Assembly: GCA_039917935.1 (NCBI GenBank)
Contig: JBDSIM010000033.1
Location: forward strand, 3,148 to 67,147
Reading direction: 5' to 3'
DNA: 64,000 nt
From: Cyclobacteriaceae bacterium
Lineage (GTDB): Bacteria; Bacteroidota; Bacteroidia; Cytophagales; Cyclobacteriaceae
Shown: positions 36,162 to 36,285 of the stretch, in pieces
How positions within the stretch are numbered: position 1 is the first letter of the stretch
How the letters are laid out: each line of letters opens with the position of its first letter
The notes under the pieces: model-generated
Seen by the model: only the letters and a program-made list of their open reading frames with translations
Told to the model about the DNA's origin: nothing
Database searches by the model: none
Translations under genes and position numbers: made by a program

Positions 36162-36285
36162 GATCCAGGTTCAGTGATCGTGTGCCAAATAATAAACCGG
36201 GAGTTACAAAATGTTTCACCCTAAGGGGTTCCATGATTTCGATCGAAGACGTAATCCATTCTTGAACTCTAAAGATATTTCGAAC
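36162..36285 (-). repeat. Copy 1 of a bipartite dispersed non-coding element
   Basis: Block A (36254-36285, minus strand) is 25/32 identical to 54909-54940. Block B (36162-36187, minus strand) is 24/26 identical to 54979-55004. Confidence 0.8.

Follow-up and report, generated by a model that had tools for sequence, protein, structure and literature searches.

Two intergenic loci of a soil Chryseolinea as probable decayed copies of a lineage-specific non-autonomous repeat without terminal inverted repeats

The window (the whole 64,000-nt stretch of DNA that was analysed) corresponds to C33:3148-67147 of G000, a 336-contig, 5.35-Mb MAG of a soil Chryseolinea, a genus that belongs to the Cytophagales; a window coordinate equals the C33 coordinate minus 3147. 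Two intergenic loci are considered here, copy 1 on the minus strand and copy 2 on the plus strand. Their segments are numbered according to a 251-nt consensus core, derived from an alignment of 27 full loci of the repeat family described below. The genes and features of the two loci are the following.

35051..36010, minus strand: Asparaginase_2 family gene, downstream of copy 1 and co-directional with it
36066..36123, minus strand: leader-like heptamer run AATTTGAAATCATTTGAAATTTAAAGTTTGATGTTGTTTGATGTTCAAAATT (from the sequence, compared with the leaders of C33:68009, C31, C334 and C38)
36124..36193, minus strand: 3' segment of copy 1, consensus 164-234 (nhmmer C33:39340->39271, E=2.3e-14)
36187->36162, minus strand: block B of copy 1, TGGCACACGATCACTGAACCTGGATC
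36194..36292, minus strand: 5' segment of copy 1, consensus 2-101 (nhmmer C33:39439->39341, E=5.8e-21)
36285->36254, minus strand: block A of copy 1, GTTCGAAATATCTTTAGAGTTCAAGAATGGAT
36286..36304, minus strand: heptamer-type leader of copy 1, GTTAAGTTCCAAGTTCCAA, immediately downstream of the TAG stop (36305-36307)
36305..36808, minus strand: NlpC/P60 peptidase gene, upstream of copy 1 and co-directional with it
53740-54231, plus strand: ECF sigma factor gene, upstream of copy 2 and co-directional with it
54233-54856, plus strand: 207-aa gene with no Pfam match, upstream of copy 2 and co-directional with it
54863..54901, plus strand: heptamer-type leader of copy 2, GCAGGTTGCAGGTCCAAATTTGAAATTTGAAATTGTTCA... 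(from the sequence)
54902..54940, plus strand: 5' segment of copy 2, consensus 2-40, block A (nhmmer C33:58049-58087, E=4.9e-4)
54939..55018, plus strand: 3' segment of copy 2, consensus 129-209 (nhmmer C33:58086-58165, E=4e-17)
55255-56502: GCS2 ligase gene beyond copy 2, convergent

An earlier note, made from the sequence alone, had described these loci as two copies of a bipartite motif in which conserved blocks, A and B, enclose a variable core. The positions given there were borne out: blocks A and B of copy 1 run 36285->36254 and 36187->36162 on the minus strand, and the second copy occupies 54909-55004 on the plus strand. Our own counts on the sequences reproduce the reported matches between the copies, 25/32 for block A (36285->36254 versus 54909-54940) and 24/26 for block B (36187->36162 versus 54979-55004), the middles between the blocks measuring 66 nt in copy 1 and 38 nt in copy 2. 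This resemblance is far above chance, since dozens of further genomic loci carry the same blocks (BLAST, nhmmer). As had been noticed, both copies lie in the sense orientation after a stop codon (block A stands 19 nt past a TAG in copy 1 and 52 nt past a TGA in copy 2), both have heptamer-like repeats upstream, and copy 1 contains a small hairpin (ACCCCTTAGGGT, 36229-36218). The extents had to be enlarged: the blocks lie where they had been placed, but homology runs further, over 36292->36124 in copy 1 and 54902-55018 in copy 2.

The NlpC/P60-asparaginase gene pair around copy 1 is conserved across the genus, with spacers ranging from 40 to 361 nt; the spacer is 298 nt long here versus 40 nt in two other Chryseolinea species. 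Copy 1 is not an assembly artefact, because contigs from other metagenomes enter it from both sides at 99-100% identity, and they have the same form. No empty allele of copy 1 was found among Logan contigs, which break at the repeat, and the contig of G034 (a sister species, see below) stops just before the copy 2 site. In L044 (G031:C53) and L049 (G018:C60), from other Chryseolinea species, the same spacer (orthologous to 36011-36304) holds unrelated inserts, which lie between inverted arrays of heptamers whose words are specific to the species (GGTTGCC/GGCAACC; ATTTCTG/CAGAAAT, then TCTTAAA).

Comparison of the blocks with the genome, as the earlier note had proposed, yielded 63 matches in G000 when copy 1 was used as the BLAST query. 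An nhmmer profile returned 81 matches at E<1e-3, with 43 at E<=1e-40 and 25 that were end-to-end. The supposed two-copy motif turned out to consist of two members of a larger, oriented, non-coding repeat family (family 1 hereafter), which has about 50-80 copies in G000. All copies are intergenic, no recurrent ORF was found inside or beside them, and the pairwise identity of 33 near-full copies has a median of 0.84 (range 0.74-0.96). The family 1 blocks mostly stand in one fixed order over about 250 nt (about 300 nt with the leader): block A, hairpin H1 (ACCCCGTAGGGGT), hairpin H2 (GTAA/GTAG followed by CCCCCGGTTTCAACCGGGGG), hairpin H3 (GTGTGCCA...TGGCACAC around a smaller stem), block B and a distal stem. 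The 3' boundary of the core is sharp (...ACCGGACAGCAGTG, in nearly all copies). Nearly all members are preceded by a heptamer-type leader, a variable run of degenerate 7-nt repeats (GTTTCAA/GTTTGAA/GTTTAAA) of 1-55 nt; inside one subfamily, conservation extends to the leader and to the sequence at its start (ATTTGAAATTTGAAG). Copies are commonly duplicated in tandem or deleted internally, and in head-to-tail tandems ...CAGCAGTG is joined directly to GTTTGAAG.... A full copy lies just outside the window, at C33:68009-68267.

Placed on the consensus with nhmmer, copy 1 corresponds to positions 2-101 joined to 164-234, with 102-163 deleted, and copy 2 to positions 2-40 joined to 129-209, with 41-128 deleted. 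The 5' segment of copy 1 comprises block A, H1 (the small hairpin at 36229-36218) and the 5' arm of H2. Beyond the deletion junction, which falls between 36194 and 36193, the 3' segment comprises the 3' arm of H3 (TGGCACAC), block B and the distal stem, the final ~18 nt of the consensus being absent as well. In copy 2, the block A segment (covered by 24 BLAST matches) is joined to a 3' segment (covered by about 48) that contains a complete H3, in which GTGTGCCA at 54941-54948 pairs with TGGCACAC at 54979-54986, and block B; the 3' ~43 nt of the consensus are absent. Each window copy is a mosaic of blocks found 24-52 times in the genome (BLAST coverage plots), and in profile coordinates the 66-nt and 38-nt middles are non-overlapping pieces of the same parent. 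The pattern of conserved ends around a variable core is therefore mostly an artefact of setting side by side two different internal deletions of one parent of ~250 nt. The GYAACTCYCG core that the middles were thought to have in common dissolves in the same way into non-homologous positions: the string forms the start of H2 in copy 1 (consensus about 88-98) and lies in the loop of H3 in copy 2 (consensus about 140-152). Nor does the proposed outer pairing of GTTCA with TGAAC confer unusual stability, the fold z-scores being +0.26 for copy 1 and -0.66 for copy 2. With H2 and half of H3 missing from copy 1, H1 and H2 missing from copy 2 and the 3' terminus absent in both, the window copies are probably inert remnants.

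The run at 36066-36123 is similar in its letters to ATTTGAAATTTGAAG, the 5' terminus of other copies; it probably remains from a second element or a local array. Within the copy 2 leader, ATTTGAAATTTGAAAT (at 54878) agrees with the 5' terminus of other copies, as defined at C33:68009 by comparison with an empty site. True replacement of the middle was seen at one locus of family 1, C73. There, the leader, block A and 3' terminus (C73:35756-36110) surround a different middle of ~190 nt, which is a three-copy repeat with its other copies at C154:7778-7972 and C40:6275-6461.

Family 1 was found in 1 of the 26 other species representatives of the genus, G034 (Chryseolinea sp. GFS_11203; 20 matches), and was absent from the remaining 25. 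Short 'block A' matches in other Chryseolinea species were rejected as members, being plain heptamer arrays. The flanks of G000 and G034 are 91-98% identical at the orthologous sites compared, and at least seven such sites carry the element in one of the sister species and lack it in the other. C238, C150, C33:68009, C215:24671, C40 and C215:5284 are filled in G000 and empty in G034, and a site filled in G034 (L056) is empty in G000 at C36:18878-18938. Copies also differ in form: C334 has two tandem copies in G000 versus one in G034, and the full copy at C320 in G000 is half-deleted in G034. At orthologous sites, the two sister species thus differ by gains or losses of family 1 copies. The empty sites at C215:24671 and C33:68009 have no heptamer array; therefore, the leader arrives with the insert.

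Comparison of filled and empty sites, another check that had been suggested for the window loci, revealed 9-bp direct repeats at four junctions anchored by an empty site: TTTTAG[C/T]AC, AATAAAA[T/A]T, GTT[G/A]CAAGT and GC[T/C]TTAAGC. Each of these repeats contains one mismatch and has a single occurrence at the empty site. The analysis was extended genome-wide to 25 copies, for which the 9-mer after ...CAGCAGTG was sought within 100 nt upstream of the core. An exact repeat was found in 6 of the 25 (1.3 expected from cross-pairing, P=0.0014) and a repeat with at most one mismatch in 11 (5.2 expected, P=0.008), the low-complexity heptamer flanks raising the frequency of chance repeats (5-21% in the controls). 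No duplication was detectable in more than half of the 25 copies, nor was one seen at the clean filled/empty pair C215:5284. Family 1 is, then, often flanked by a 9-bp direct repeat of target sequence. It has in common with MITEs a target-site duplication of fixed length (9 bp), small size (a 251-nt core), absence of an ORF, multiple copies (81 nhmmer matches) and insertion polymorphism. Terminal inverted repeats (TIRs) are absent: the 5' ends at the duplications are heterogeneous heptamer words that are not complementary to the 3' end. Of the two readings offered in the earlier note, that of a miniature non-autonomous mobile element gained support from the many dispersed copies, the restriction to two sister species, the filled and empty sites and the 9-bp repeats resembling target duplications.

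Heptamer arrays are found with and without the core of family 1. Arrays of the TTTGAAG type number 68 in G000 versus 6 in a shuffle, and 37 of the 68 lie within 100 nt of a family 1 copy; as in STRR-like heptamer repeats, tandem 7-nt units stand at gene ends. In other Chryseolinea species, arrays without the core occupy intergenic gaps too, frequently in the form of inverted arms. A similar arrangement surrounds all six PF05635 genes of G000 (C186:14993-15307, C173:11598-11912, C330:7065-7373, C206:209-523, C54:2590-2892 and C269:17523-17816), which belong to the 23S rRNA intervening-sequence protein family (four-helix bundle): each gene is flanked by inverted arrays of a cassette-specific 7-nt word. 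In the C173 cassette, this word is of the same TTTGAAG type as in the family 1 leader.

ORFs within 3 kb of the copies belong to housekeeping families only (by eye, Gfo/Idh/MocA-type, histidine kinase, ABC-F, receiver domain and FG-GAP) and include no partner transposase. No partner IS sharing the ends of family 1 was found near the copies or elsewhere in the 336 contigs of G000. IS copies are often missing from fragmented MAGs and, because G000 is such a genome, the failed search is weak evidence of absence. A search for a longer unit between inverted 3' termini gave only one pair in G000, with a 114-nt span at C20:1277-1391 (GCTGTCCGGTAAAAA ... TTATACCGGACAGTAGTG). An IS110 partner was considered because an IS110-like gene adjoins a distant relative of the element in L086, and it was discarded: no sequence in common with family 1, or with family 2 described below, flanks the IS110-like genes at C255, C190 and C150. 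Ends derived from IS200/IS605 (PATE) or from IS110 were likewise rejected, given the presence of duplications and the unrelated ends of the resident IS110-like elements. A Y1/RAYT partner was set aside as well, the genes being present in the genome with different hairpins at their flanks. PF01797 (Y1/RAYT-like) genes occur in 22 of the 27 genomes of the genus, and those at C22, C94, C155, C112 and G034:C748 have flanking hairpins other than the CCCCGG-type H2. Around the RAYT-like Y1 gene at C22:3116-3460, there are REP-like ATATTGTAGCAACGGATTTCAATCCGTTG units, two downstream and one variant upstream; these are like H2 in layout and loop, and four of the six stem pairs differ on both sides. 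G000 contains no abundant stand-alone REP class, and the REP layout of H2 (GTAA/GTAG followed by CCCCCGGTTTCAACCGGGGG) occurs only as part of the ~250-nt unit.

A second non-coding repeat, family 2, is ~600 nt long, has H1-H2-H3 in common with family 1 and is confined to the same sister species, with 39 matches in G000 (e.g. C302:23133-23746) and 34 in G034. The motif GGGCGAATCACCTCACCC recurs at the boundaries of its units, and genes for single-domain proteins of ~125 aa, which by eye resemble CheY-type receivers, repeatedly adjoin it (C173:18140-18514, C90:2782-3159 and 3513-3890, C197:2764-3135, C73:36826-37203). Distant relatives of the H2-H3 module were found in three JGI metagenome contigs, with different H2 stems. 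In one contig, L086 (JGI11643J11755_11652255), a distant relative of the H1-H2-H3 module at 83-257 lies about 100 nt from an IS110/IS1111-type transposase gene (443-1516, PF01548 + PF02371), and the apparent boundaries of this IS repeat TTAGGAGAGCCTG. It looks like an IS that inserted into the repeat region, and not like a partner of the element.

The other reading in the earlier note, an undescribed structured 3'-UTR RNA, received no positive support from the Rfam and covariation analyses that it called for, nor from the fold z-scores, which are weak. A search of the window with Rfam 15 at the gathering threshold returned tRNAs only, with no match to either copy; at permissive thresholds, the two full copies and L086 gave nothing but chance-level scores (E>0.2), obtained on the full copies. 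Among the 33 near-full copies, at most one double change per pair was observed versus up to 14 breaks, and alifold keeps only H3. Compared with shuffled sequences, a full copy has a fold z-score of -1.9 in the sense and -2.6 in the antisense orientation. Scans revealed neither a sigma-70-type promoter nor a canonical terminator inside the element. By eye, TAccTTTA in block A resembles a Bacteroidota -7 box; no promoter is claimed for it, because the spacing of the -33 TTG depends on the variable leader. The two soil RNA runs, the only ones existing, contain fragmentary contigs of a relative at ~93%.

The element is strongly co-oriented with genes. At tandem gene pairs, 28 of 32 copies are co-directional with both genes and 4 are opposite (two-sided binomial P about 2e-5, our own arithmetic), on the basis of crude gene calls, for which the longest ORFs were taken from 120 aa upwards; the 7 convergent and 6 divergent contexts are uninformative in this respect. 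The co-orientation points to selection, or to an insertion bias, linked to transcription. Selection acting through transcription is suggested because a replication-linked insertion bias alone would hardly yield 87%. Read in the antisense direction, H2 and H1 each precede a U-rich tract (GGGGGUUACAAAAUUUUU and GGGGUUCCGUGAUUUCG). Copies may survive mainly when they are co-directional with the flanking genes: the opposite orientation would place GC hairpins followed by U-rich tracts in the mRNA, where they could act as polar terminators inside operons.

With rather more confidence than doubt, we regard the two window loci as decayed copies, each with an internal deletion, of a mobile repeat that is lineage-specific, non-coding and non-autonomous, is MITE- or BOX-like and lacks TIRs. 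Its insertion would be carried out by a transposase-like enzyme, supplied in trans, that makes 9-bp staggered cuts. A functional structured RNA seems unlikely to us; it might be a small RNA in many copies, or a 3'-UTR/intercistronic module that stabilises or processes the upstream mRNA, and its spread would be secondary. REP, ERIC or BOX elements can stabilise or process upstream mRNA, and such a role would be in keeping with the co-orientation with transcription at 28 of 32 tandem gene pairs, the usual position of the element tens of nt past a stop codon, the recurrence of the three hairpins in family 2 and in the distant metagenome relatives, the variety of H2 stems (CCCCCGG/CCGGGGG, CCACC/GGTGG, CCACGGGC/GCCTGTGG) and the somewhat better folding of a full copy than of its shuffles (z = -1.9). 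However, neither strand has an Rfam match, pair-breaking substitutions are far commoner than compensating ones in the 33 copies, the fold of the antisense strand is as good or better (z = -2.6), and the scans gave no sigma-70-type promoter or canonical terminator. In addition, the window copies, from which one or two hairpins have disappeared, are no more stable in folding than their shuffles.

The other alternatives concern the route of spread. A REP/BIME-type mosaic handled by a RAYT (REP-associated Y1 tyrosine transposase), with H2 as the recognised REP, is improbable in our estimation. The GTA(G/A) of H2 does precede a GC-rich hairpin, ATATTGTAGCAACGGATTTCAATCCGTTG at the RAYT-like gene of C22 has the ATTGTAGC context and the TTTCAA loop in common with H2, and PF01797 genes are present in 22 of the 27 genomes of the genus. 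Yet the CCCCGG-type hairpin flanks none of the four Y1 genes of G000, nor the one examined in G034, an abundant stand-alone REP class is lacking, the unit is ~250 nt long and single-oriented instead of a REPIN doublet, and Y1 genes occur in most species of the genus whereas the element occurs in two. The 9-bp target duplications of family 1 also argue against a RAYT; we know of no HUH/Y1 system that produces them. Still lower in our estimation, and highly improbable, is a non-mobile origin in which recombination, slippage and gene conversion between heptamer-rich regions account for spread and loss, and the direct repeats are low-complexity by-products. Heptamer arrays are found at the empty sites of C40 and C150 too, tandem duplications and internal deletions are common, and chance 9-mer repeats are frequent in such flanks (control rate 5-21%); against this, at C215:24671 and C33:68009 the element entered sequence other than heptamers, brought its own leader and duplicated a unique 9-mer, and copies are present at about 50 unrelated loci. 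We give the least credence of all to a retroposed SINE-like element, which would be read on the opposite strand with a defined 5' end (CACTGCTGTCCGG...), a variable heptamer 3' tail and target-site duplications. These features are expected from target-primed reverse transcription, and family 1 indeed has one sharp end, a variable simple-repeat run of 1-55 nt at the other, target duplications around both and no TIRs. Even so, the length of the duplication seems fixed at 9 bp instead of being variable, leaders are inherited within subfamilies and not made anew at each insertion, and heptamer arrays are widespread between genes throughout the genus, whether or not the element is present; we know of no bacterial precedent for such a retroposed repeat.

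Small interspersed repeats are recognised and poorly catalogued in bacteria, and almost nothing has been described for soil Cytophagales. Family 1 is a clean and recent case, with numerous filled and empty sites in a pair of sister species, and offers a handle on how TIR-less repeats and intergenic heptamer arrays spread, and on whether the orientation of a repeat matters for the fate of mRNA. It is conceivable, although we would not expect it, that family 1 is moved by a mechanism new for bacterial repeats, with one fixed terminus, one variable heptamer terminus and 9-bp duplications; a target-primed, SINE-like route is one option for such a mechanism. The same machinery could spread heptamer-armed cassettes (including those with PF05635) and arrays in Cytophagales and other phyla. 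For annotation, the two window loci are a warning that pairs described as a bipartite motif with a variable core can be differently deleted copies of one repeat.

Several known systems resemble family 1 in part. Like the classical MITEs Correia, ERIC, RUP and Nezha (PMC2229807, PMC3184786, PMC10969869), it is non-autonomous, below 300 nt, intergenic, rich in hairpins and associated with target-site duplications; ERIC has effects on mRNA that depend on its orientation. Unlike them, it is without defining TIRs, and no partner IS with matching ends was found. The GTAG and GC-hairpin layout of H2, the mosaic structure, the intergenic position and the presence of RAYT-like genes in the genome recall REP/BIME-RAYT systems; in contrast to these, no RAYT gene is flanked by the H2 hairpin, the unit is ten times the length of a REP, and duplications of 9 bp are present. 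Family 1 thus lacks both the TIRs that define MITEs and the cognate RAYT that defines REP/BIME. Intergenic heptamer arrays have been published as GGGAATC arrays of Xanthomonas and Nostoc (PMC4692102) and as TAACTGA repeats of Beggiatoaceae (PMC4679880). The leader of family 1, and often its right flank, consists of TTTGAAG-type 7-mers as in heptamer arrays (cyanobacterial STRR and others) and PF05635 cassettes. Those arrays lack a conserved 250-nt core, whereas the core of family 1 is long and unique, its 3' end is fixed and its arms are not clearly inverted.

The pneumococcal BOX and SPRITE repeats (PMC3049150) are small, non-coding, intergenic and multicopy within one species group, and they are modular, with subunits gained and lost, transcribed with their neighbours and uncertain as to the mobilising enzyme; family 1 is similar on all these counts. 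It has no sequence relationship with them, is built as a single core of ~250 nt plus a heptamer leader and not from boxA-B-C units, and is without TIRs, whereas BOX elements have been reported with TIRs and target duplications (PMC3049150, Croucher et al. 2011). The BrickBuilt MITE of Porphyromonas gingivalis, of which a genome has about 19 copies (Klein et al. 2015, PMC4596501), is like family 1 a non-coding, intergenic and species-restricted repeat of Bacteroidota that combines unique parts with short tandem repeats. Its unique parts are a 'leader' and a 'tail', its ends are small inverted repeats, and a 23-nt minisatellite lies inside it (PMC4596501), whereas the tandem units of family 1 are 7 nt long and stand at one end and the ends are not inverted (the two were compared by description). 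In its behaviour, family 1 comes closest to BOX/SPRITE (PMC3049150) and BrickBuilt (PMC4596501).
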